The notes beneath the pieces were generated by a model. The model saw only the letters and a program-made list of their open reading frames with translations. It had not been told where the DNA came from and made no database searches. A stretch of 57,639 nt of DNA, the filler included, from Sphacelaria rigidula (lineage: Eukaryota): NCBI GenBank assembly GCA_964200075.2. It is 6 parts of 6 records of this genome, joined end to end, with 100 filler letters (N's around TTAATTAATTAA, not from the genome) between each part and the next. Parts side by side here need not be neighbours in the genome. Positions count along the whole stretch, not along the records: positions 38,496 to 48,017 come from CAXNAA020008301.1; 5 more parts are not named here. One strand, given 5' to 3'. Shown here piece after piece: positions 9,526-51,027 of the stretch; positions within the stretch are counted from its first letter, which is position 1; the number at the start of each line of letters is the position of its first letter. The position numbers were made by a program, and so were the translations under genes.

Positions 9526-9625
9526 NNNNNNNNNNNNNNNNNNNNNNNNNNNNNNNNNNNNNNNNNNNNTTAATTAATTAANNNNNNNNNNNNNNNNNNN
9601 NNNNNNNNNNNNNNNNNNNNNNNNN
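9526..9625. other. Artificial contig linker
   Basis: N44-TTAATTAATTAA-N44 (stops in six frames). The same linker occurs at 19150-19249, 28773-28872, 38396-38495 and 48018-48117. Confidence 0.99.
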
Positions 9626-15435: not shown

Positions 15436-15901
15436 CTGGTTGCGATGGCAATAGATACGGCACAACCACGCGTTCCTAGGTCAACGTCTGCACAGGCTAA
15501 GAACGGCGAGAGAATCGATTATGATGAGCAACGTGGCTCAAGGTTGAGCTGCATCCTGCCAAGAATATTCGGCCCGAAGCGTGCGGATTGCGTTGCATGT
15601 AGATGACAACTTCGAATAAGTTGCTTTGTTTTCTGGTATCGGCACTTGCAGAGATAGCCACGGGTTACACACTGTATCATGAGTGTTTCACCATAGGCGT
15701 AGGGGCGGTATCCATTTGTTGCTTGCCTCAGTCGTTCGACCATGGGCCGCACATCCCTTTCGAGACGGAGGACCGTTCCTACTCCTAATAGAGACATCTC
15801 CAACATTTGGGAGCTCATTACGCTTCTTCCGTACATTACACAAAACCACAGGCACCGTAGGAAAGGTAGGTACCCGTTACCGGTTTTCGGGACATGTCAC
15901 A

Positions 15902-16196
15902 CCTACGATACCTACGTTACCACGGTATTTCGAGATACCAGTACCTACCGTACCCCCTCAATCGGGTATTTTCAAATGTCATGCTTACGATACCTACGAT
16001 ACCACGGTATTTCGAGATTTCAGTACCTACCGTACCCACTCAATCGGGTATTTTCAAATGTCATGCCTACGATACCTACGATACCACGGTATTTCGAAAT
16101 TTCAGTACCTACCGTACCCGCTCAATCGGGTATTTTGAAAACTCTCACCTACGATACCCACGCATACCACGGTATGGGATACCCCGGTAAATACCG
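15902..16196 (+). repeat. 82-bp tandem array (about 3.5 units), subterminal in the TIR element
   Basis: Units start at 15902, 15984, 16066 and 16148 (CCTACGATACCTACGATACCACGGTATTTCGAG...). Confidence 0.95.
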
Positions 16197-17435: not shown

Positions 17436-17554
17436 TAAGTCACGCCCTGAAACGCTTCTCCGCACTGCCGGATGACAGTTTTGACGTCGTTGTAGAGGGT
17501 GTGGCAGGTACCCGGTATGGGTATTTGTGGGACATCGCATACCCTACTGATGCC

Positions 17555-17870
17555 GACCCAATCGGGTACTTTCAAATGCCATACCTACGATACCTACGAT
17601 ACTATGGTATCTCGAGATACCAGTACCTACCGTACCTGCCCAATCGGGTATTTTCGAATGCCATACCTACGATACCACGGGATTTCGATATACCAGTACC
17701 TACCGTGCCCGCTCAATCAGGTATTTTCAAAACTCATACCTACGATACCTACGGTACCACGGTATTTCGAGATTTCAATACCTACCGTACCCGCTCAGTC
17801 AGGTATTTCCAAAACTCATTTCGACGGCACCCACGCATACCACGGTACGAGATACCCCGGTAAATACCGT
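17555..17870 (+). repeat. Second array of the same about 82-bp unit, same orientation
   Basis: Same motifs as 15902-16196 and the same end block GATACCCCGGTAAATACCG. Confidence 0.9.
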
Positions 17871-19089
17871 GGGTACGCTCGGTGTGGTACCTTACCTACG
17901 GTTCCCGTGCACAAAACCCTTCCACATATCTTATCCCCGTTTTGTTCCACCGTCTGTGGCCACCATCTATCTCCTAGCATAGCCTCGTTTTCTCCCTACT
18001 GCCCGATGCATCAAACGATTCCATGTCACCTTCGCTTACTTCCTGCCTTTCCCCCTCTAGCACGTCCCGTTCCTCCTTGTATAGTTTCTTCTGCCACTAA
18101 GTGGGTCGCACTCTATTCCTCCGCCACAGGGGCAACTCTGTGCATCTACTTCCTCCTCCACTCGACTCCTGGCATATCCCTCTTTCTGCCAGGTCTAGGT
18201 CCCCCACCCGAAATCGCAGTTTCAATTTTTTCGCCGCGTCCATTGGGTCATGCAGATATGTTTTATCCTTATCCCCTCTCTCAAGCCCCCGTACATCTTC
18301 AGATAATCTTCATCGTCTAGTTTACGCCTTAGCGTTTCTTCTTCCCTCAAATCCATCATGCTTCTTACTTCTGTCTTGTGCCCCTTGCCTTCGCCTATGA
18401 ACATTATCTCGTCTTTGTTTCCTCCTATCTCCTTCCATACTTTCTCGACTACGCTATCCCACCTTATTTCAGCCTGCCCTTTCGCTACTTTCTTCTACAC
18501 AGCCCTATCAACTTCGGCTGGCAATCTCTTGCTCTGCATGCCCTTCACGCTATATTGCCATCGCAATTTTCTTTTGTCTCTGTTCAAAGTGGGTATATTC
18601 TCAGCTCTGCTCTCAATGCTGTATTACTCGTCGTTTTCGAGCATTCAAGTATTTTCTTAGCTGTTGTCATCTGCACTGTTTCCAGCTTCTGCACCAGCTT
18701 CGCGTTCCCCTCCCATACTTCTCCCGCATATTCCAGTTTTGGTACAATCACGTTCATTAGAATACATGCCGTAATCCTAGTATCTAGGTGCGAGTCTCTG
18801 AGGATCACGTCCATCCTGCCTGTGCCTGACCCTTTCCTATTTCTTCACCCATGTGTGCACCCCAAGAACAGGTTTTTGATATCTCTACGCCAAGGTATGT
18901 ATACTGGTCTACGATCGGCAGTTCCTCTTCCCTCACTCCAATTTGAACTCTACCGAGTTCTTCTTGCGTTCGTTACACAAAAAGTACCGCGCATTTGTCA
19001 GGGTTCGCTGTCACTCTCCATTTCCCAGTGTATTCTAGCGCCTTGTTCATCTGTTCCTGTGATCCTTCTGGTGTTTATGATATCCCCAT

Positions 19090-19149: not shown

Positions 19150-19249
19150 NNNNNNNNNNNNNNNNNNNNNNNNNNNNNNNNNNNNNNNNNNNNTTAATTA
19201 ATTAANNNNNNNNNNNNNNNNNNNNNNNNNNNNNNNNNNNNNNNNNNNN

Positions 19250-23951: not shown

Positions 23952-24752
23952 CCACCGCGCCCCGGTGGTGTAATGGTCCGACTGTCGCCATTAGGGTGGA
24001 GAGAACGAGGGTTCGATTCCCGATGCGTTGGATTTTTTCTTCGTAACATCTGATTTCCAAGGGCATGTCGAGTAGAGTATACTCAATACTCAGTATTTTC
24101 GAAGAGTCATACTCTTAGTACTCAAAATTTGAGTAGAGTATTTGAGGTCGTACTCGACCTGGTCCAAAATTAGGTGAAGTAATGAGGTCATACCCAAGTG
24201 AGACTCTATACTCAAGTATTACTAAGAGTGCTTACTCAATCTTTGAGTAGAGTATTGGCGGTCGTACTCGATCTACTCAAAAATTGAGTAGAGTATTGGA
24301 GGTTGTGCTCGATCTACTCAAACTTTGAGTAGAGTATTGGATGCCGTACCCGACCTACTCAAAATTCGAGTAGCGTATTGGAGGCCGTCCCCAACCTACT
24401 CAATATTTGAGTAGAGTATTTGAGGCCGTACTCGACCCACTCAAAAATTGACACAAGTAAACACTCGGGTACTCTACTCGAGGACTCGAAAGTACATACT
24501 CTACTCGACCTGCCCTTGCTGATTTCCCGTGGTGGAAAGCGTGAGAACGTGAGTAAACAAAGTATTAATAGTCGACTGAGTTTGTTTGACGTGAGTTGAC
24601 GCGGTTCGGGAGTGTTGGTCATGATCCAATCCGCGAGATCAAAATGCAAGGCGTGTACCGGGGGAGAGATGGGTTGATCCTTTGGGACCACGGACTCGTC
24701 CCGAGCAAGTGGAGGGCTTCAAAGTGCGACAAATAAAATAAAAATAAAAAAT
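23952..24752 (+). mobile_element. tRNA-derived SINE interrupted by a P-like MITE
   Basis: A-box TGGTGTAATGG (23966-23976), B-box GGTTCGATTCC (24010-24020). Body 24600-24710 recurs at about 27048-27182. AAAAT-repeat tail at 24730-24752. Confidence 0.65.
24058..24518. mobile_element. P-like MITE, family C, with internal 41-bp tandem array
   Basis: TIR CAAGGGCATGTCGAGTAGAGTAT / ATACTCTACTCGACCTGCCCTTG, perfect TSD CTGATTTC (24050-24057, 24519-24526). Repeat units at 24233, 24274, 24315, 24356, 24397 and 24438. Confidence 0.95.
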
Positions 24753-28538: not shown

Positions 28539-29149
28539 GAATATTACTGGACGAGATGATCCAGTGAATAGTGGCCATGCCGACAAAAAAAGGGTCAGGG
28601 TTCGAGACAATTTCAAGACAAAATCAATTGATCAACCCTCCTCTCCTCCCCCCCCCCCCTTCTAGGCCGAAGATCTGTGGAGGAAACCCTCGACAACCTT
28701 TCACGGTTAGGACAAATCATCACGACTCAAAATCATCAAATTCACGATTTCTTCTGCCTGATTGCCCGAAAGNNNNNNNNNNNNNNNNNNNNNNNNNNNN
28801 NNNNNNNNNNNNNNNNTTAATTAATTAANNNNNNNNNNNNNNNNNNNNNNNNNNNNNNNNNNNNNNNNNNNNGTGGGACCTACGGTTTATACAGCATGAC
28901 TACTTGCGCGTCATGGCGAGTCGACTCGTGTAAATGTTGATTTGTCCTAACCGTGTTCCATTCTCTCCCCAAGTACGGGTCTTCTGTCAGAGCCTGCTAC
29001 ATACGAATTACGATGCCCTAAACACGCGGGAGGCATCGTTCGAACGTACTCACTTTATCCTACTACTTTATGACCTCTGCTCACCCTACTCCTCATGCGA
29101 CTGACCGCACACATCACGGGGCTTCGCGCTTGGTGATTGATTGCGAGCC

Positions 29150-38188: not shown

Positions 38189-38559
38189 CTATTGTTTTTC
38201 GATTCCAAACAAAGCAGCGACGTTAGGGCGCAATGTTGTGAATCGAATTGTGTACGGGAATTATAGTATACCGGACATGGGTGAAGTATGTGTGGTCATC
38301 AGGAGGGGACGAGGTCTGCCCTCCTCCGTTTTGGCATTGATCCAAAACAAAATAGGCGTAGGCGGCAAATTACGACGAGATAGAGAGTTTCTGTGNNNNN
38401 NNNNNNNNNNNNNNNNNNNNNNNNNNNNNNNNNNNNNNNTTAATTAATTAANNNNNNNNNNNNNNNNNNNNNNNNNNNNNNNNNNNNNNNNNNNNCTCGG
38501 TCGCAAGTGTTTCGCGTCTTCCCTGCAAAAGGGAAATGCCACTTCAACCTCATATTTGT

Positions 38560-40399
38560 ATGAACCCCATTTTCTGGATCCACCGTTATGTGCCGAAAGG
38601 CTATGATGCTAGACGGGGGAATATCGAAATATTCCGACATCTTACAAGAAGTTGCACAAGGATGTACGTTATCACCCACTTTGTTCAAGGTATATATACA
38701 TGGCTTGATAATAGCAATAGAAGAAGAAAGGAAGGGGTCAAGGTGGGTGAAGATATGGTGTCAGGATTGATGTTCGCGGATCAATATGTGGGTATTTCAG
38801 AAACACCAGGAGGATTACAGGCACAGATAAACAAGGCGCTAGAATACACTAGGAAATGGAGAGTGACAGCGAACGTCAACAAATGCGCTGTACTCGACGG
38901 TTACGAAGATGAAATACATCCGGTAGAGTTCAGATAGAAGTGGGGAGAAGAGGAATTGCCGATCGTAGACCGGTTTACATAGCTTGGCGTAGAGGTCTCC
39001 AGAAACTGTTTTTGGGATGCACACATAAACAAAGTAATAGAAAAGGGTAAGACATACATATGCAGAATGGACGTGATCCTCAGAGACCCGCACCTAGACA
39101 CTAGGATCACGAGATGTATCCTGATGAACTTGATCGTACCAAAGATGGAATGTGCAGGAGAAATATGGGAGGGGAGCGTGAAGGTGGTGAAGAGGTTGGA
39201 AACAGTACAGATGGCAGCAGCTAAAACAATACCTGGATGCTCGAAAACGACGAGTAATACAGCCTTGAAAGCAGAGTTGGGAATGTACCTACTTGAAACA
39301 GAGACATGAGGAAATTGCGATGGCAATAGACTAATGCCGAGATAGCCCCCCCACAAAAAGTGCACCGGCACCATCCAACGAACCGGCTGCGATCCCACTA
39401 TTGGGCCTGTTTGCAGCAACTTCGCCCACATGAGAGGCGTGTAGTAGTCCGAAATCAGCTATAACGCCCAAGTGAGTCGCGTCGTGCAGCACGAAACCAG
39501 CTTTGACGGCAGTTATGATCATCGCCTCCGTGCACATTTTTGGCCGGTTTTGGGGGGGGGCTACCTCGGCAGCATTCAATATAGCGTCACGAACATGCAG
39601 AGAAAGAGATTGCCAGCTATAGTTGATAAGGCTGTATGGAAGAAATTACGAAAGGGCAGGCTGGAGTAAGGTGGGATAAAGAAGTCGAGGAAGTATGAAA
39701 TGAGATAGGAGGAAACAAAGACAAAACACTGTCCATAGCTGAAGAAGCGGGGTACGAGACAGAAGTAAGAGACATTATAGAAACAAGGGGGAAAGAAAGG
39801 CTCAGACGTAACGTAGACGAGAAAAGAACACCTGGAGATATATGGGTGGTTGAGAGAGGGGATAGGGATGAAAGCATGTTTACATGGCCCAAAGGATGCG
39901 GCGAAAAGTATAAAATTGTGATTTCTTGTGGAGGACCTGGGCCTGCCAGAAAGAAGAAAGAGATGTGTGGCAGTCGTCGAAAAGAGGAGGAAGTAGATGG
40001 ACAAAACTGCCCCTGTGGCAAAGAAATAGAGAGCAGAACTCATATAGTGGCAGAATGTGAACCATACAAGGAGGAAAGGGACATGCTAGAGGAGAAAACG
40101 CGGGACGCGAACGACGGTGGCATGAAATCGTTTGATGCAGTGGACAGTAGGGAGAAAACTCTGGCTATACTAGGAGATAGATAGCGGCCACAGACGGCGA
40201 AACAGGATGGGGATAAGATATGTAAAAATATTTTTCCATGTATGGAAGAAATGTAGTGAGCGCCGGAATGTTGGAGGTGGCTTTATGACGAGTAGGAACG
40301 GTGCTCCGTCTCGAAAGGGATGCGTGGTCAACGGTCAAACAACTGAGACAAGCAGCAAATGAGTACGTCCCCCCCCGCCACCCCCCCCCCCTCTCCCCC
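38560..40399 (+). mobile_element. Decayed LINE: RT domains, C-terminal Cys/His knuckle, poly(C) tail
   Basis: VAQGCTLSPTLFKVYI and GLMFADQYVG (degenerate FADD) RT motifs; CPCGKEIESRTHIVAEC knuckle; TGA at 40360-40362, then a C-rich tail at 40369-40399. Many stops and frameshifts. Confidence 0.92.
39329..39577. mobile_element. 249-bp MITE (GAC ends, 4-bp TSD), copy 1, inside the LINE
   Basis: TIR core TGCCGAGATAGCCCCCCC, TSD AATA (39325-39328, 39578-39581). The uninterrupted site GATGGCAATATAGCGT is seen in the LINE copy at about 18546-18561 (minus). Confidence 0.92.
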
Positions 40400-40654: not shown

Positions 40655-40965
40655 TACCATATAACAGCCCGAACACGGACATGATAAAAAAGCTAACCAT
40701 CCGTTCCCTCTAACCTATCACGACACAGCCCGGACATAGACATGAAATGGAGAAGCTAACCATCCTTTTTCTTCAATCTACCATACCACACACAGTCCGG
40801 ACATATGTATGAAATAGAGAAGCTTAATCTCCTTCTTCTTCAACCTACCATCACACAGCCCGGACATACATATGAAATAACGAAGCAAACCGCCCCTTTT
40901 CTTTAAAACAGCCGATCACCTATGTTGAGGATGATTGGCTGTTTTAACCTGCCATAACACAGCCC
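40655..40965. repeat. Minisatellite of about 62-bp units x5
   Basis: Recurring ACAGCCCGGACATA..CATGAAAT..AGAAGCTAACCATCC.TT..CTTCAACCTACCAT. Confidence 0.85.
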
Positions 40966-41600
40966 AAAAATGAACGTGGAAAGCGAAAAATAACAGATCT
41001 ACTTTCCCATATCAAGTCGGAAAACAACCGGATTCTCCCCCCCAAAATCATATCAAACGTAAGACAAAAAAAAACTAGTAATGTAAGTAATAGTGTGAAG
41101 GTTAACCACCTTACATGCAAATTGAAAATACAAAATACATAACAAGAACGGATAGGCGAGGGTCATCATCACCCCCGAAATGTGAACTCCAAATGGAGGT
41201 TGGGGCCTCATGAAGAAATACCAGTGAAACCTTATCGGTTCCCAGTGGGCGATGAAATTTTGGTCGAACACTTTCTTGAATTTTCCAACATTAGTGCAAA
41301 AGACACCTAATGGAGGGAAGAGGTGGATAATGCATGACATCAACGTCAAGACCTACTAAACACATGAGACAAACACTTTACCAATGACCGACCACATGAC
41401 CTACGAGAAGGAGCACCAAGCGGTACGTACTCTTCTTGAGATCTTGAAGGGAAAAAGCTGGTACAACGTGTGTAGGAATCGTTGGCCAAGTCTTCGGCAG
41501 CGAAGGTCTACTCCGAAGAATCAGTGGAGTAGCGACCCATGGTGGACCGTACACGGAGTGGGAAGAAGTGATGTACGGAACATGACGATGTGGGTAAGAC

Positions 41601-41853
41601 TGTTCCTTGGCTCAGGCATAGGGTAATGGTTTCAGATCTTTTATTGAAGAGCAACCAAGTTATACTACAACTTGGGAGAGTGCTGATGAGATGGAGGTAG
41701 ATGAATGAGAATGATCAAAGGCGGCGGGCTGCTCTGCTGCTCTCAGCGTACTGCACCACATTTGCACACACTTGACTGTCGGTACTTGTACATCACCCAG
41801 ACCCCCGGTTCTACGTAGATCCCGTATAACTGGGTATCTGAATCACTCGAACA
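41601..41853 (-). repeat. 3' LTR (253 bp, TG...CA)
   Basis: About 11 substitutions and 1 indel versus the 5' LTR by eye (about 95% identity). Terminal inverted TGTTC/GAACA. Confidence 0.97.
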
Positions 41854-41863
41854 CTCCCCCTGA
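41854..41863 (-). promoter_or_regulatory. Polypurine tract
   Basis: Minus strand TCAGGGGGAG immediately precedes the 3' LTR. Confidence 0.9.
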
Positions 41864-42156
41864 TCGGATACCTCAGCACTCAAAGCTAAAAACAAAATAA
41901 GGAGGAAACTCGGCCTTCCAAGCAAAAAACTCTATCACACAACTCCACCGCTTGTGCTCAAAACAAACAGCCCTTTTTCGCAGACGCCCAAGCCAGGGCA
42001 CCTGCACTTAACAACGGGAAACGCCCTACAAACCCATGCCCCACAAAGTAGCGTGAGCGGCTTCACCCAATGTAAGCGCAGATGCATTACGGAAACCATG
42101 ACCTGAAACATCTAGAGCTGACAAATCGAAAGACACACACAAAACAAAATATGTGT

Positions 42157-45100
42157 CTACTCGCTGTCCCCAGTGTTCATCAAGACGCGGCGGTGCCTGT
42201 TGAACAGCGTGAATGGGAGCGGCTTTGTAAGCATATCAGCGTGTTGCCACTCCGAATCCACGTGAACAATCCTTACTGCTCCCGTCCTAACCAAGTCCCT
42301 TATAAAATGCCACCTCACGTCGATGTGGTTACTTCGACCTGAGCTGAGAGGGTTGTTGGCTAAAGCCTTAGCCCCCTCGTTGTCTTCATAGAGAACAATA
42401 TCGTACTCTACTTGTCGTCCCAACAAGACCTTCGGTCGTAGGAAAGACAGTACCGACCTGACAAACATGCATTCCTTCGCCCCTTCCGCCATAGCTACGT
42501 ACTCGGCCTTGGTGGTTGACAGGGTAACGCAGTGTTGCGTTCGACTAGTACTTGATACTGCTATTCCCCCGTACATGACCGCTACACCGGAAACTGACCG
42601 CCGGTCTGTATCTTTCTTGGCGTAATCAGCATCACAATAAAGTGTGAGCCTACTCTCCCCTGAACTCAAAGTCAGACCGTAGTTTCTGGGTGTGTTGAGG
42701 TACGCCAGAGCTTTCAACACCCCTCGCCAGTGTCTTTCACGTGAGTCGTGTGATTGTCGGGCCAGGTCTCGGGCTGCATTTGCCATGTCAGGCCTGGTTA
42801 CCCCAGCCAACCACATCAAACCTCCCACGGCACTCCGGTATGGCCTATCTAAAATCTCATCACCTTGCTTCACCGGTCCCAAATCTGCAGACACTGATGC
42901 GGGAATATCAGAAAATTCCGTAACCTCGACACGCTTCAGTATGGTGTCGACACAGGTCGTCTGATTCACGAACATGGTACCTCTTTTCCAATTCCTCTCT
43001 ATGCCACACCCCATATAACACTGGACTTCACCTAAGTTGTTCATCGGGAATCCGTTGTTGAGGATATTACATACCCTCTCCGACTAATGCCGAGATAGCC
43101 CCCGCACAAGAAGTGCACGGGGGATCGTCCGACAAATCGGCTGCGATCCCACTATATTGGGCCCATTTGCAGCAATGCCGCCCACATGAAAGGCTTGTAG
43201 CAGTCCGAAATCAGCTATAACGCCCAAATAAGTCGCGTCGTGGAGCACGAAACCAGCTCTAATGGCATTTATGATCATCGCCTCCGTGCCGGTTTTGGGG
43301 GGGGGCTATCTCGGCAGCAGTGCTCCACTCTTTTGGTTTCTCCCCCAATTAGAATGTCGTCCACATGTACCACAAGTATGACACACACTTTCCCCCTTTC
43401 CTCCAGTCTGTACACACACGGATCAGCCTTACTTCGCGACATTTTTACATCCTCCATCAGTGTTTTGTCCAGGAGGAGGGACCATTGCCTTCCTGCTTGT
43501 TTTACTCCGTATATAGATTTTTCTAGCCTAACCGTGCTACCTGTCGAGGGGTCACACCCTTCTGGGAGCTTCATAAACACGTTCGTGTCCATTTTGGCTC
43601 GTACAAGAGCCTGGGTAACGTCGAAGTGATATAGTGGTCATCGTCTTTGTACTGCCACGGCCATGACCAATTTTATTGATGTCACGGCCTGGGTGGCTGC
43701 AAACGTCTCAAAATAATCCACGGCGAATCTCTGACCAAACCCACGCGCCACTAATCTAGCTTTCGCTTTAGTTACAGTACCATTAGCGTCGATTTTCCAA
43801 GTGAACACCCATTTGGCTATGATTATGTTTTTTACTCCTTTTGGAATTTCTCCTTTAGAGAATGTACCTGCGGTTTCATGACCATTCAGTTCTGCACGCA
43901 TGACACTCACTCATATTTCCTTATATTCCGACTTTTGTATGTCTTCTACTGTTACGGGGGGAGTTTCCACATTTCTCACGTGCAGACCGATGGGGGGACG
44001 CAAACCAAAAGTGGGCTCCTCCTCCGTCTCGCGTTCTGCTGAAAAACAAAAATACTTCTGCTCCGCAAAGGTCTCTTCGATCTGCATGGCCGCGCTGCCT
44101 CCCACCTCTGGTCCGGCTGCTACAGTGATCAGCTCCGTCATCTCGCACTTATCCTCTGCCATTGCATACAGCACAGTCTCCGCTTGAGCTCTCGCCTGAT
44201 TCCTCGCCAGCGCACGAAGGAAAATATTGTTTCTTTCCCACGCCATCATTCTGTCCAGTTCATCCTCTGCCGCCGATGCTAGCTCGTTTTGGTCGGCTGC
44301 CGCTCTCGTCGCACTGCGCGTGCGACCAGCCATTTGTGGAGGCAGAGATAACTCATCGTCGAGAGCAAGATGGCGTAGCTCCGTCCTTGGGATTTCGGGA
44401 GCTCCACCGCCCCCCCCGTCATTGCGCTTGGGGGTGTCTACGGTTGTCAGTGTTGTTTCTGTCGGCGTTGGCGGCGGCGTTGTTTCTGTCGGCGTCGGCG
44501 GCGGCGGTGTTTCTGTCGGCGGCGATGTGGGGGGCGCTGATCCCCCGTCATCAAGGAGATGTCGGACAGGGTTGCGTAAAATCCCGCGCCCTCCCCCCGC
44601 TTCTGCAATGAAGCAGCGAGGTCATCTCACCCCCCCCCGCCCATAGCGGGCGTCTGTTGTGCCGCTTCTGCGTCTAGCTCTGGGTTGGGGAGCAAGAACG
44701 ACACGTGCCGTGAGCCGCGGGGTGAAGCACGCGCCGCCGGAGTTTGCCGTTCCGCGGACTCGCTACCGGCCGTCCCTCCCTCGCTCCGTCGGGCGTCGAG
44801 ATCGCTTGCTGTGGGGTAGGGAGAAGGGTAGGGGCAACATACGCCCATGTTACGTGCCTGGTCGTAATAGTTTGTCCTGTTTCCGTCATCACTCTCATAG
44901 CATCGCGCGGGTATCCTGGGGCTGGTCTAAGGTACCAGCACCTCCGAGCTTTTCGTTGTAACTTGTCTGTTCTCTGTCTGAACTCTACGAATCCTGGCTT
45001 TAGAAAAGGAAGGAGGTCGTTTTCCGGTGGTACTCTGTGCTATATTTCGTGTGGCGTCTTGTTTCCCGGGTTGGCCGAGGTTGCAGTACAGTTCAAAGCA

Positions 45101-47667
45101 TGGCATGCCCAGTTAGCCTGTTCCACCAACAGATTTTTGCTTGTTGGGATGTTCTGGTTCGGGTACATCTCCGATGCCTGAATTTTGGCTGCAAGGCCGG
45201 CCGCCTCTATGATGCCAATTGCACGCTCCGCTACGCCGTTGAACTGTGGGGCGTCAGCAGCTGTTTTCTCTTGTTTTATTTTCTCTCTATCACACAGCTC
45301 CTCGAACGCCCCCTCCGAAAATTGACCTTCACCATCACTGCGGACCTTCTCGATTTTTCGCGGGTGAATCTCTGCGATGTATTTACTAAAGCACTGTACG
45401 GACTCGTCCTTCGTGCGCAAAAAAACAATCTAGTGCACCGCGAGCAATCATCGCGTACTATCATCATGTACGACTTTCCTCCCCGAGATCTAACTGGTTT
45501 TGGGCCTGTGAGATCAACAAACACTCTGGAAGCTGGCTCAAATGCTCGTGTATGGGTCGATCTTTGGATGGGCTGCTGAAGTCCCTTTCCTTCCGAGTAT
45601 CCTCGGCATGGTCTCAACTCGCCACGCAGCTCGACTCCGAGCTGCTTTGCAGTCCGCCGGAGCAGGTCCTCGTGAACATGCGCGTGTTTGCAATGGAAAT
45701 CATTCATGTCTTCAACTTGGGGGTTGGGAAGTTTCCCCGGGAATATCACAGCGCATGCTGACGCATGCTTGTCATGACCATTCGGAAAGATGCGGAGGGC
45801 ATACATAAATAGTTGTCCGTGTTGATCGGGGATCTTCAGGGTTTTGCCTGATTTCAACTCAACCTGGAATCCATCACTAGACCCAATGTAGGTGTGACCC
45901 GCGTTGGACATCCTGGTCAGTGACAACAGATGGTGACGGACACAAGGTGCGTGGTCTACATTTTTCAAATGTAAGACTATATCGCGTCCGTCAGATCGTA
46001 AAGATAGAGCCAGGTTACCTCTTCCTACGATCGGGTAGGTACCACCGCCCGCGCACCGTAGTACCCTTCCACTGCATTTTCTATAGTCCGTCATCATACT
46101 TGAATCCGGAGAAAAATTCCAAGTGGCCCCCGTGTCAAGTATCCACGGTTCGCCCCCATCTGACTGTTCTACATCCCCCTTCCCGGTCGCAAGCGCATAC
46201 TCGTCTGGGTTCACCTCGTTCACCGTCATGTCGAGGCTGGTGAACGCTTCTGCATCAGCATCCGAACAGACGGAGTCATCGTCCACCACGTCTTCCGCCA
46301 CGCCCATCACAATCGCCGCGTCCTCCACAGTGTTCTGACAATCAATCAAACTGTGTCCGCTCTTTCCGCACCTAACACAACGCCTGTCTGGACAGTCTCT
46401 TGCTCGATGTGTGGTCATCTTCTGACAAACATGGCACCTCCACGGCGTCGCAGCCCCTGATTGGCTCGTCGATGATGAAGCCGGCGGCTGGTTGTTCTTG
46501 CCCTGCCCCCCGTCACCTGCGCGACCTAGGTTCTGGGTCTTTCCCAGCTTACCTTTCCGGTGTGAACCGTTTGGTTTGCCGGGATGGCCCTTGACAGCAA
46601 GGGCCTGGTCGCCCGGGGAAGCCTTCTTCCCCTCGGCGAGTTCCTGCTTGAAAAGTGCCGATTCGAAACGTTTTCGAACCGACGTCACTACGACTTCCCT
46701 CGTGAGTGGACCTTCGCGCTCCTCCAACGCCTGTTTTTGGCAGTTATACTCGCAAGGAAGCGCATTGACAAATTTGAGGAGGGTTTGCGCCTCCGTCAGG
46801 ACGATGTTGCTGTCGTGTGATTGTGACTCTCTCGCCACCTCTTCCATCTCGATTAGGTTTTGAACAGGATCATCGCGAAGTCCAATCTTCACGTGATCAT
46901 ACTTTTCTAGAAGAGCTAATCTAGCTCCGCTGGTCTTGGAGCTGTAGAAATCATTTCCCTCACGCCACATGGCTGCTGGAGGCGGAATTCGGAACAAAAC
47001 ATCCCGGTCCCGCTTATGTTCGAGACTTGCCACCAACATTTGCCTCGCTCTCACGTTTGCAGCTACAGTGCCCTTTCCGTGCCTTGCTTCAAGAAAACTC
47101 AAGGATAACGCCTTGTTTCCCACCTCCACATCCTATGTCCTATTTTCTGACATAGTGATAACCCAATCAACTGCTTCACTTCTTGCAAACATGATTAGTT
47201 CATGACTGCAGTGGTTAAACTCTGAACGCTTCCCAGACAACTTGGGTACAGCTGCCTTGAAAACCGGGACCGAACACTGCGACGGACTCACTGGCGGGGT
47301 CTACACCCCTTGCTCCGTCGCTTGCTGTCCTGTGGTAGCTCCCGCTCGGAGCTCCCCGCTCGCCCTCTCGGCTATGTCTTCGGCCTTGAGGTGAGCTTTG
47401 GTTGGCTGCGTTGTCAGCCCGGTGTTGTTGTGTTGTTTGATCTTCCTCGCTTTCGACGACGCCACTCCACCTCGCGCCTCCGGATTCTCGACCTTCGATG
47501 CCATCTACCCTACCCTGCATTACAGTCTGTGCAGATTGTACATCTTTTACCATCCCTGTCAGTGTGCTAAACTGACCACTGAACAGACTCATCATACTTT
47601 CAAGCTGACTCGTGGGCCCGTCTACCATTTCTCCTGAAGACGGAGCGTTACCATCGTTCCTAGCCAC
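42157..47667 (-). pseudogene. Disrupted copia gag-pol
   Basis: Two zinc knuckles (CHVCQKMTTHRARDC, CVRCGKSGHSLIDC); protease WILDTGAT; integrase VFVDLTGP, VRSDG, PQFNGVAER; RT KWVFTWK, KARLVARGF, VHVDD; RNase H YCDADYA, YEDNEGA, HIDVRWHFIR, ADMLTKPL. Broken by several stops and frameshifts and by a MITE. Confidence 0.97.
43082..43322. mobile_element. 241-bp MITE (GAC ends, 4-bp TSD), copy 2, inside the copia RT
   Basis: Homologous to 39329-39577. TSD CTCC (43078-43081, 43323-43326). Confidence 0.92.
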
Positions 47668-47692
47668 ACTTGCCCAATCGATTGATCATTAA

Positions 47693-47948
47693 TGTATTCC
47701 TTGGCTCAGGCTCAGGGTAATGGTTTCAGATCTTTTATTGAAGAGCACCCAAGTTCTACTACAACTTGGGAGAGTGCTGATGAGATGGAGGTAGATGAAT
47801 GAGAATGATCAAAGGCGGCGGGCTGCTTTGCTGCTCTCAGCCGTACTGCACCACATTTGCACACACTTGACTGTCGGTACTCGTACATCACCCCGACCCC
47901 CGGTTCTACGTAGATCCAGCATTACTGGGTATCTGAATCACTCGAACA
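47693..47948 (-). repeat. 5' LTR
   Basis: Copy of 41601-41853. The inner boundary is 47693 (ends CA) or 47695 (ends TA). AATAAA on the minus strand at 47734-47739. Confidence 0.96.
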
Positions 47949-47951
47949 AAG

Positions 47952-48017
47952 GAGTCATCCTACGATAGCAGGGGGGGTATTTTGGGCCATTTGTCGCTCG
48001 AAATTTCGAGTCAGATC
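47952..48017. mobile_element. Left end of a GAGTCAT-family MITE (cut by contig end)
   Basis: GAGTCATCCTACGATAGCAGGGGGGGTATTTTGGG matches the terminus at 34757-34791. Confidence 0.8.
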
Positions 48018-48163
48018 NNNNNNNNNNNNNNNNNNNNNNNNNNNNNNNNNNNNNNNNNNNNTTAATTAATTAANNNNNNNNNNNNNNNNNNNNNNNNNNN
48101 NNNNNNNNNNNNNNNNNTTGTCCATGCTGCATCTGCTGCTTCTGTTTTTATTATCATTGCTGC

Positions 48164-48165
48164 CG

Positions 48166-48245
<80 letters not shown>

Positions 48246-48246
48246 G
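48164..48246. repeat. (GTT)n / (AAC)n microsatellite
   Basis: Direct reading, about 27 units. Confidence 0.97.
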
Positions 48247-51027
48247 CTGCTGCTGGCGATGTTATCTTGTTGTCTAGTTGGGGGGGACTGTTGCGCGATG
48301 GGCGCGGTAGTTTCGTTTCCAGCACGATTGTCCGGGAGGACTTTGTCAGGGAGGGTACCTTCTGGACAGTTTTTGTCGCTCACATTGGCGTCGACGCCGT
48401 TGCTGCTATTGTCATCGCTGTTGTCATTATTTGCGGCATTCCCTGCGGCACCAGCGTGCTCTGCTAGCATCTTGGTCATCCATCGCTCGAGAAGGATAAC
48501 CTTCATTGTTGGTGGCGGTGAATCGAGGTAAACAGTTGACAGCACATAATTGAGGTCGGCTACTATCCTTGTTCGTCTTCGGAACGTATTTTTAGTGTAA
48601 GGTGTAGGGGTTACACGTTTGTTCTTCTCGTCAGGCCTGTCAGAACAGTGCTCGGGCGTAACCCCCGTCTAGATTGCTGTAAGGAGTGAAGGCGTTTCAT
48701 CTACCTAACGCGAGAAAATTATCGTGCACCCGCTAACAGGTTTGATCATTCAAATCTCGTGTTTTTCAATCATGGATCATATGTCGTGTCAGTCACACAC
48801 GTGGGTCGTGGGGGAATGAATATTTCACGGACCCGCTGTTGTGGCTATTATCCATTATATGAGCTGTCGTCACATACGGTAGTAGCGATAAGTACTCGGA
48901 TATGTTTTGCTAGTTTTATACCATTTGCCCGCCCAAAGCGCCACCCAGTAAACAACGCACAAGGCATGGCACGACAGATGCCTGTACATCGACTAGACCG
49001 GCACCTGTAAGTAACGTCGTGTGTACACATTAAACGTTATGGTCTCGTAGCCACAGTTGTAATGGTTTCAGGCATGGTAGGACCATTGGTTCGCGCTGCG
49101 CCTGTGCTGGTGTTGTTACCTGCTCTCGATTGCTCGGTCGCCGTGCTGGAAAGACAATTCGGTGCCACAGCCGTTCAGCGGGATCATACCTGCGTCGGTA
49201 TCATGTTGCGTGCGTTCGGCAGAGGAATGCACGTCGAGCAAAACAAATAGTTGTTTCTCAACGTGCTTCATCCTGCGAGACTGCAGCGACGACCGCAATA
49301 CCGGTAGCTGTCCCTCGATTGACCAACTATGTTATGGTATGCAATCAGCGTGTTTTTGTTTTGGGCGGGCTCAGCGGCTAGAGAAGAGTGTCGCAGGTGC
49401 CATCTCGACTACGACATGTGCAGATGAAATAGAAAGAATGATTCCTATAACTTACTCAATCTCAACACGACATTGGCACTGACGGATCGATGGTGATCAG
49501 ACACTAGTCCACGACGTTTATCGGTAGCGTATGGGCGAAACGAGAAATTTTGAGGGCGATATTCTAGAGTTGACAATCATTTGACATTCAATTGGACGGC
49601 ATCCTACCACAGAGGGTTAACCCCTAGTGCCCCACTTGATATTAGTTGTGGCTCATCTAACTATGGTGGAACGTGTGTTTAACGTGATGAGCGTGATACC
49701 ATTACTCCAGAATACAAGTCCCAAACAGAGGGCGCTGAAGAGGGATAGCGACGGTCTTGCTCACCATTCTTCGAAGCAGGGATCGCCTTTCTTGAGCAAT
49801 GACTTCTCCACCAGGCGAGAGTCTTGAGGTATCTTGGTTGGCGGCACATTCACGTCATTCCACTCCCCCTGCCGAGCCTTATTTTTGTTGTGTTTTTGAT
49901 GCATTGTTCATGGAGCCCGAACGGGGAGCGCAGTTCCGAGGCGAGACGAGGAAAATTTATTTACCACGTTGCAACATTTCTTTTTTCAAAGGTCAGCCAT
50001 CTCTTTCTGTGCTTTGCTTTCGTTGATTTTTTCCTCTCTTTCTTTTTTTCTTTTTACGTCCTAGTCTACTATTTCGTTCTGTTCGACGTTTTGCTGCTCT
50101 TTCGTTTTCTTGAGCGAGTGTTTTCGGTTTTGTTTTTCTTGGGTGCGTCTATCATGCGGTCACGGCTGGACCCATGGGTGATCAGTTAAAGTGCGACAAC
50201 CAAATCAGATCAGATCAAATCAACAAACTACTGAGGTACGGACGGGGGGTGTACGTGTTAGCGCCCACTGAAAGTCGAACAAAGCAATCAAATCTGCACA
50301 AAAAAGCACTCCTTGTGTCTTCGTCCAAACGTCGGGCGACGGAGAGATGTCCGTACAAATATTCCCGGAGTTTGAGCGCCGCAGGGATCAGCCGCAAAAG
50401 GAGGATGCCTCCTGTGACGCTGGACTATACAGTGATGGTAGCGATAGTCAGCGGCTCGCCTATTCTCCGTACGACGTCATGTACCTCCACACGCTCTTCA
50501 TTGTTCATATAGTATACACAATTACAGCGTTGTTGTACCGCGTGAGTGACGAGTAGAATACGCCCTACCTGTTCGTGGTTGCAACTGCTCTGGTTCAGCT
50601 ACGAATTGGGCCAGCCTAACAGCTGACATGACTCTAGCACCCGACAACGTTTTCATTTCCCGGAAATAACCTGATGTTATGATATCGCTGTGAAGCGCAG
50701 ACCAACCTGCTAATGCACGCTCTGCCGCCAAAACAAAGTGTACTGCATAGTGTATGACCTCAACGATGGAATCAGGTTCTGCAAAAAAGAAGTATATGTC
50801 AGGATTCAAACTCGTGACCTCCGCAGCTGCTGGAGTCTCCTGTACCACTTGGAAGATCACCGGGGCGCGAGCGGTTTCGCGCAAAAAGTGGAACGCCCCG
50901 CCCAATTTTAGTAGCTTTGAGCCGAAATTTTACGAGGGCCTTTTGCACGCAAGTCAAGAATTCTTTGCCCAAGCAACAAGATATTTTTTTATCGTAAATG
51001 TTTGGCCTTTTTCTTCATGCCGACCTG

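Follow-up and report, generated by a model that had tools for sequence, protein, structure and literature searches.

Priming of reverse transcription is a defining step for LTR elements. Few departures from tRNA priming are known: self-priming of the Tf1 type, half tRNAs, and the unexplained hairpin site of GalEa elements.

For Tf1, the available portion of PMC7175516 describes pairing of the first 11 nt of the RNA with the PBS, and an RNase H cut between nucleotides 11 and 12. In a screen of plant elements, self-primers were sought as complements of at least 10 bp starting 0–5 bp after the LTR, and self-priming was predicted for the TAR lineage of Ty1/copia, comprising Houba and Osr-1 (PMC6317226, available portion).

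The fungal GalEa copia elements have no PBS according to the accessible text of PMC5445492, and CTGATCAGT or CTAATTAGT stands directly behind their LTR. With the last A of the LTR included, this text forms a palindrome, whose two main variants are distinguished by letters at paired positions. At 12–41 bp downstream follows CHSeq2, another 9-mer, which is inverse-complementary to the first and has one A/A mismatch. The site was named the Conserved Hairpin Site (CHS), and, in the same portion of that paper, its authors report that no Tf1-like complement was found (PMC5445492).

No description of the primer sites of brown-algal copia elements was found in the literature searched.

A dead copy of an abundant Ty1/copia family

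The window, i.e., the whole stretch of DNA that was analyzed (57,639 nt), originates from Sphacelaria rigidula, a brown alga. It is composed of six contigs of about 9,522–9,525 nt each, joined by five linkers of the form N44-TTAATTAATTAA-N44 (9526–9625, 19150–19249, 28773–28872, 38396–38495, and 48018–48117), and is not one continuous locus. Within the fifth contig (38496–48017; 9,522 nt), a Ty1/copia LTR element of 6.35 kb was found on the minus strand, with the following features:

47949..48017, no strand: 5' flank up to the contig end, part of another, very abundant repeat
47695..47948, minus strand: 5' LTR, 254 nt, starting with TGTTCGAG and ending with GGAATA (LTR–LTR alignment)
47804..47812, minus strand: 9-mer TTGATCATT in the LTR, the proposed self-primer, with a second copy at 41710–41718 (sequence)
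47748..47770, minus strand: perfect hairpin of 8 bp, CCCAAGTT...AACTTGGG, with a 7-nt loop, directly before the AATAAA of the LTR (sequence and folding)
47734..47739, minus strand: AATAAA poly(A) signal in the LTR, with a second copy at 41640–41645 (sequence)
47682..47690, minus strand: post-LTR 9-mer AATGATCAA, the exact complement of the LTR 9-mer in the window copy; the family majority reads AGTGATCAA
47215..47667, minus strand: open frame of the gag N-terminus, first in-frame ATG at 47628
45276..47129, minus strand: frame of 617 aa with gag (PF14223), zinc knuckles, protease, Pol_BBD and the start of integrase, after which the frame breaks
43275..43592, minus strand: reverse transcriptase fragment (RVT_2; Pfam domain match)
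42157..43083, minus strand: frame of 308 aa with the RT C-terminus and RNase H, 84–87% identical to other S. rigidula copies
41854..41861, minus strand: polypurine tract AGGGGGAG, abutting the 3' LTR (sequence)
41601..41853, minus strand: 3' LTR, 253 nt, ending with GGAACA (LTR–LTR alignment)

The order gag, protease, integrase, RT, RNase H, all on the minus strand and with a copia-type gag and RVT_2, is that of Ty1/copia. The integrase is visible solely as a broken frame, and since the frames between the coding parts are broken, the window copy is dead. There were 636 homologues, the best of which come from S. rigidula.

For a view of the family, contigs of four public runs (X1, X2, X4 and X6; three probably DNA, one guessed to be RNA) were aligned to positions 47200–48017 at 80% likeness. 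Between 131 and 4,811 contigs aligned per run, which shows that the Ty1/copia family to which the dead window copy belongs is highly repeated and has a very high copy number in S. rigidula. About 30 majority differences between the family and the window copy were listed in 751 nt, i.e., about 4% per site.

Alignment of the two LTRs yielded 11 mismatches and one gap in 254 columns. The limits of the 5' LTR are supported by family contigs with unlike flanks, which stop at 47695 and 47948 (loose ends), and the polypurine tract text AGGGGGAG recurs as a loose end at 47948. The two LTRs differ at their ends, the 5' LTR having TA (47696) and the 3' LTR having CA (41602), and no high-share variant was listed at 47696 among the family contigs. 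Judging from these letters, the LTR of the family may be of a non-canonical TG..TA type, or the true LTR end may lie two bases further, at 47693. The element is flanked by TCCTT and GTCTT, which agree at three of five positions, so that the target-site duplication is not clean. By its position, the hairpin at 47748–47770 is reminiscent of poly(A) hairpins in the R region of retroviruses; its counterpart in the 3' LTR carries a change in the second arm.

In the 5' flank, many contigs begin to align at 47952, and the flank repeat (47952–48017) exceeded the element by far in summed contig depth in each of the four runs. The only other copy in the window is an RT fragment at 39329–39574 (246 nt), which is 84% identical to the element RT region 43082–43319 on the same strand and represents the remnant of a related copia copy. 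The region around it (38789–40372) mirrors 17913–19088 in inverted orientation.

Elsewhere in the window, none of 13 other long frames matched a Pfam family, and a scan for bacterial-type promoters and terminators, which is unsuited to a eukaryote, returned nothing. Two contig ends (9472–9525 and 19091–19149) share text that is 90% alike, consisting of a run of 9–10 G followed by TGTACTCATGATCA..., TGATCA included. By its sequence, this text looks like a polypurine tract with the start of another repeat or LTR family; the frames upstream of both ends matched no Pfam family. The sixth contig starts with a long TTG/CAA triplet repeat (48125–48266). Tandem arrays were observed with units of about 41 nt (24119–24492), 63–67 nt (40684–40906) and 82 nt (15826–16196 and 17508–17869).

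The missing tRNA PBS and the 9-nt complement

The original prediction described the element as a copia element without a tRNA PBS, primed by pairing of a 9-nt LTR motif with the text just after the LTR. Its statements about the sequence all held when re-checked, the sole difference being that the LTR end is placed two bases earlier here. The distance of the post-LTR 9-mer from the LTR, given there as 2–4 nt, is accordingly 4 nt with the LTR end at 47695, and the value of 2 nt applies if the next CA is counted as LTR.

In the window copy, the text after the 5' LTR reads CATTAATGATCAATCG. No TGG was found within 0–5 nt of the LTR, the first one occurring at +19, and GGTTATG-type text, as in a half-tRNA-iMet PBS, was absent after the 5' LTR. 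The element has no recognizable canonical PBS, neither of the tRNA-3'-end nor of the half-tRNA-iMet type. In this respect, it shares with the half-tRNA-primed copia elements (copia, Ty5 and Osser type) both the superfamily and the absence of TGG after the LTR; however, those elements carry GGTTATGGGCCC-like text right after the LTR, and nothing similar is present in the S. rigidula element.

The same inspection was applied to a control set of 21 metagenome copia loci with repeat pairs. In six of the 21 (L002, L041, L042, L044, L045 and L063), GGTTATGGGCCC, of the half tRNA-iMet type, was found directly after the LTR. In two (L052 and L069), TGGTATCAGAGC occupied this position, and two more loci had a displaced or variant copy of it. 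These six and two loci are 30–36% identical to the S. rigidula element in RT/RNase H. The longest LTR complement measured 5–8 nt in 19 of the 21 control loci; one locus had none, and in one it reached 12 nt, within a simple repeat. Canonical PBS sites are readily visible in other copia elements by this inspection.

The metagenome contigs contained 523 copia relatives, and among the best 80 of these 523 the closest was 43% identical, with DNA likeness to the element at none of the loci. Being distant and without DNA likeness, these relatives are of no use for co-variation and served as a control only. In viral contigs, neither relatives nor pattern matches were found (0 each). Two matches to a 19-nt pattern in bacterial MAGs showed no further likeness to the element and were taken as chance. 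A search of a protein collection for other copies, using the 69-aa open frame across the LTR, gave no candidate.

The exact 9-nt complementarity between AATGATCAA (47690–47682) and TTGATCATT (47812–47804) on the minus strand was confirmed in the window copy. As predicted, the LTR motif is present in both LTRs (47812–47804 and 41718–41710) and lies upstream of the AATAAA (47739–47734). A perfect complement of at least 9 nt starting 0–8 nt after the LTR occurred in 0.6% of 20,000 dinucleotide shuffles of the LTR (p 0.006), a value that applies to the window copy only and is uncorrected for the number of features open to inspection. The 9-mer pattern was counted five times in the window against 0.73 expected, a count inflated by the inclusion of both LTR copies and of the complement on the PBS side, which make up three of the five matches.

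The family contigs gave a different picture of the post-LTR letters. At 47689, where the window has T on the plus strand, the family reads C (on the element strand, G and not A). The other letter accounted for 84,965 of 85,009 depth units in X1, 193,960 of 194,038 in X2, 15,436 of 15,467 in X4, and 4,026.5 of 4,026.5 in X6. At 47692 (plus strand A), the family contigs read G, with similar depth shares. The numbers of contigs with the other letter at 47689 and 47692, respectively, were 47 and 47, 40 and 39, 40 and 40, and 5 and 4 in the four runs. At both positions, the other letter made up more than 99.8% of the depth in every run, and the depth of the form seen in the window corresponds to no more than about one or two copies. 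After the LTR, the element strand thus has CACTAGTGATCAATCG in the family, versus CATTAATGATCAATCG in the window.

While the window copy forms 9 Watson–Crick pairs with the LTR motif, the family letters form 7 Watson–Crick pairs, or 9 pairs with one G.U. Because of the family letter at 47689, the match drops to chance level: 7 Watson–Crick pairs were reached in 12% (p 0.12), and 9 pairs with G.U in 11% (p 0.11), of 3,000 shuffles. The perfect 9-mer thus characterizes a single decayed copy.

On the LTR side, two variants replacing TTGATCATT were seen at loose ends, TTGTTCATT in four contigs of X2 and TTGTTCACT in two contigs of X6, and both break the helix in its middle. The evidence on LTR variants is thin, amounting to these six contigs with loose ends only. 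At the partner position, the TTGTTCACT variant holds a C able to pair with the post-LTR G of the family, so that co-variation at that one pair is possible. Among the rows listed for contigs aligning at 47804–47812, no difference within the motif was found, and at least 16 (X1), 10 (X2), 12 (X4) and 4 (X6) contigs have a neighboring variant at 47813 with no listed difference inside the motif. No contig spans both the LTR 9-mer and the post-LTR 9-mer. The summed contig depth dipped in the bin of the LTR motif in all four runs, contig depth being unfit for ranking parts of the element.

These results bear directly on the Tf1-like reading, under which the RNA would start at or next to 47812 and fold with its first 9 nt onto 47690–47682, and the short RNA released by an RNase H cut would prime the minus strand into U5. 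Several observations are consistent with it. The exact complement 4 nt after the LTR in the window copy was rare among shuffles, and exactly these 9 nt are paired in the predicted minimum-energy fold of an RNA that starts at 47812. The position of the motif upstream of the AATAAA gives plausible sizes for U3 (about 136 nt) and R (about 95 nt), with a short U5. The C offered by TTGTTCACT in the two X6 contigs could pair with the post-LTR G of the family, and the contigs without a listed motif difference leave room for a subfamily with a matching pair.

The perfect 9-mer, however, rests on the private letter at 47689, and with the family letter a G.U is placed next to the would-be 3' end of the primer. 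From the Tf1 mechanism as described in PMC7175516, each cycle would copy a self-primed site anew from the primer, and a mismatch or wobble close to fixation would be unexpected. Neither of the two LTR variants seen leaves the middle of the helix intact. The Tf1-like reading also does not account for the second private change (47692), which falls outside the helix, whereas a palindrome model explains both changes. The fold was no stabler than those of shuffled sequences (z 0.45).

Like Tf1/Tf2 and the Tf1/sushi group of Ty3/gypsy, the element has no tRNA-type PBS and has a 5' LTR stretch complementary to the post-LTR text. In Tf1, however, the stretch is the 11 nt of a mapped RNA start (PMC7175516, available portion), whereas here it is 9 nt in one copy, and 7 plus wobble in the family, of an element from another superfamily. 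A perfect complement of about 10–11 nt, as in a Tf1-like element, was not found: its length is 9 nt in the window copy, and the family letters give 7 Watson–Crick pairs or 9 pairs with G.U, below both the 11 nt of Tf1 and the screening limit of at least 10 bp (PMC7175516 and PMC6317226, in the portions available). The plant TAR copia elements (Houba, Osr-1) are alike in being Ty1/copia without a tRNA PBS and with an LTR-internal complement proposed as primer. They differ in that the S. rigidula element falls below that screening limit and its host is a brown alga and not a land plant (PMC6317226, same portion). The TAR prediction lends the Tf1-like reading some support. Given this prediction, a self-priming copia element would not be a first, and the statement that self-priming would be unusual for Ty1/copia was overstated (PMC6317226, as far as available).

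The palindromic block at the LTR border

Inspection of the text at the PBS position revealed a block of overlapping palindromes on the minus strand:

47675..47694, minus strand: block of 20 nt in the place of a PBS, covered completely by three perfect palindromes (8, 6 and 10 nt) that overlap (sequence)
47694–47687, minus strand: palindrome 1, 8 nt, CATTAATG in the window and CACTAGTG in the family majority
47688–47683, minus strand: palindrome 2, 6 nt, TGATCA
47684–47675, minus strand: palindrome 3, 10 nt, CAATCGATTG

From its start at the base directly following the LTR, the block is completely covered by palindromes of at least 6 nt in both the window form and the majority form. The tiling was noticed after the fact. 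Among the 57,024 N-free 20-mers of the window, only this block and two 20-mers inside an (AT)n run were fully tiled, and full tiling was obtained in 0.05% of 300,000 shuffles of the 20-mer.

Apart from two changes private to the window copy, the block has the same letters as nearly all family contigs. The two changes are positions 3 and 6 of palindrome 1, and since the two positions pair with each other, palindrome 1 stays perfect despite the changes. By a rough estimate of our own, not computed by a tool, such a compensated pair would arise by chance in about 0.3% of cases. Since the two changes are both transitions, and their sequence context is the same when one is read on each strand, the appearance of compensation could also come from a symmetric mutational bias.

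Thermodynamic measures were less distinctive. The predicted homodimer energy of the block was not beyond that of shuffles, 8% and 14% of which do as well, and local RNA folds of the leader and block were no stabler than shuffles (z 0.3 to −0.2).

The closest resemblance was observed to the GalEa elements. As in GalEa, a copia element without PBS carries a short palindrome at the junction, of TGATCA or ACT..AGT flavor, and its variants differ at paired positions (CTGATCAGT vs CTAATTAGT there, CACTAGTG vs CATTAATG here). In both cases, the LTRs start with TGT, and their lengths are comparable, with about 235 bp there and 254 here (PMC5445492, accessible text). A perfect 8-nt palindrome extends from the first post-LTR base in both the window form and the family form.

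Differences were also evident. A CHSeq2 partner is missing here, three tiled palindromes are present instead of one, and the last A of the LTR is not needed (PMC5445492, accessible text). In a search for an inverse partner downstream, queries of the 9- and 10-nt CHSeq1 length returned best matches with 3–5 mismatches at 0, 51 or 70 nt. The fungal signatures KSRLVI, QTDD and CQPEA are absent, the consensus of the relatives having RLVA and VHVDD and the window copy TRPDM, and one knuckle of the window copy, CX2CX4HX4C, departs from the C2C4C4H signature of GalEa (PMC5445492, same text). By sequence and by analogy, the brown-algal block appears to be something of the GalEa CHS kind, but not a member of it.

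Explanations for priming and their significance

Taken together, the locus is a dead copy of an abundant copia family with a palindromic block, not tRNA-like, at the primer site. It is best read, with a confidence somewhat above the midpoint, as one in which the 9-nt LTR complement is a side effect and priming depends on the block. The complement would not be a Tf1-style self-primer; it appears at all because the LTR 9-mer holds the same TGATCA palindrome as the block, and one private change, which turns G.U into A-U, makes it a perfect 9-mer in the window copy. Priming would then not start from an RNA 5' end at 47812 but would depend on the palindromic block. Most likely, the block would act as a symmetric RNA–RNA pairing site between two genomic or element-derived RNAs. 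It would replace or assist a conventional primer site, in a manner analogous to, and not the same as, the GalEa Conserved Hairpin Site.

An unlikely but still arguable alternative is a host RNA primer that pairs with part of 47694–47675, be it an internal fragment or half of a tRNA or some other abundant RNA with its 3' end, the palindromes serving dimerization or being incidental. The primers of copia elements are indeed varied, including half tRNA-iMet, half tRNA-Ile, and an internal part of tRNA-Lys in the fungal FunCo1 (PMC6317226 and PMC5445492, in the portions available). Within the family, the block hardly varies, which would be expected of a primer site. The conserved eukaryotic 3' terminus of 18S rRNA, which we take to be ...GATCATTA, would presumably pair with 8 nt at 47691–47684 of the window copy, one of the 8 pairs becoming G.U with the family letters, and we give it little weight. 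An 8-nt match with a wobble to one among many abundant RNA ends is weak, however, and the complement of the block fitted no anticodon arm, D arm, T arm or acceptor end when compared by eye, using U33, a purine at 37, G18-G19 and the T-loop as guides. No tRNA genes were found in the window or in 82 retrieved loci. An Rfam search of 41400–48017 returned nothing, and at a loose threshold a sub-threshold match to ssnA alone, which is unrelated.

Less probable again is that there is nothing special about the site, the block being conserved by recent expansion of the family, the palindromes and the compensated change being coincidental, and weak ordinary pairing serving as primer. This explanation is favored by the post hoc nature of all the statistics, by the unremarkable thermodynamic measures, and by the window copy being dead and its variant nearly unique. 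Yet full tiling exactly from the LTR border is rare (0.05% of shuffles, and unique among the non-simple 20-mers of the window), and a missing canonical PBS in a family with thousands of contigs still demands explanation.

Tf1-like self-priming from the LTR motif is not supported, and of the explanations considered we assign it the slimmest chance.

Returning to the preferred reading, that priming depends on the palindromic block, a specific form of it, with a similarly low probability to that of an unremarkable site, would have two element RNAs paired symmetrically through the block at the U5 border, with an RNA cut at the palindrome priming its partner in trans. If true, trans priming by a sister RNA would be a third solution beside tRNA priming and the Tf1-type fold-back, possibly the same as that behind the unexplained Conserved Hairpin Site of the fungal GalEa elements.

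What merits follow-up is the triple palindrome that the family conserves at the LTR border, and the many natural copies of the family would allow tests of compensation at the paired positions. In brown-algal genomes, this family would be missed or mislabeled by annotation pipelines for which a tRNA-complementary PBS is a requirement. With a palindromic non-tRNA site in a very abundant copia family of a brown alga, the departures from tRNA priming would gain a case from the stramenopiles.
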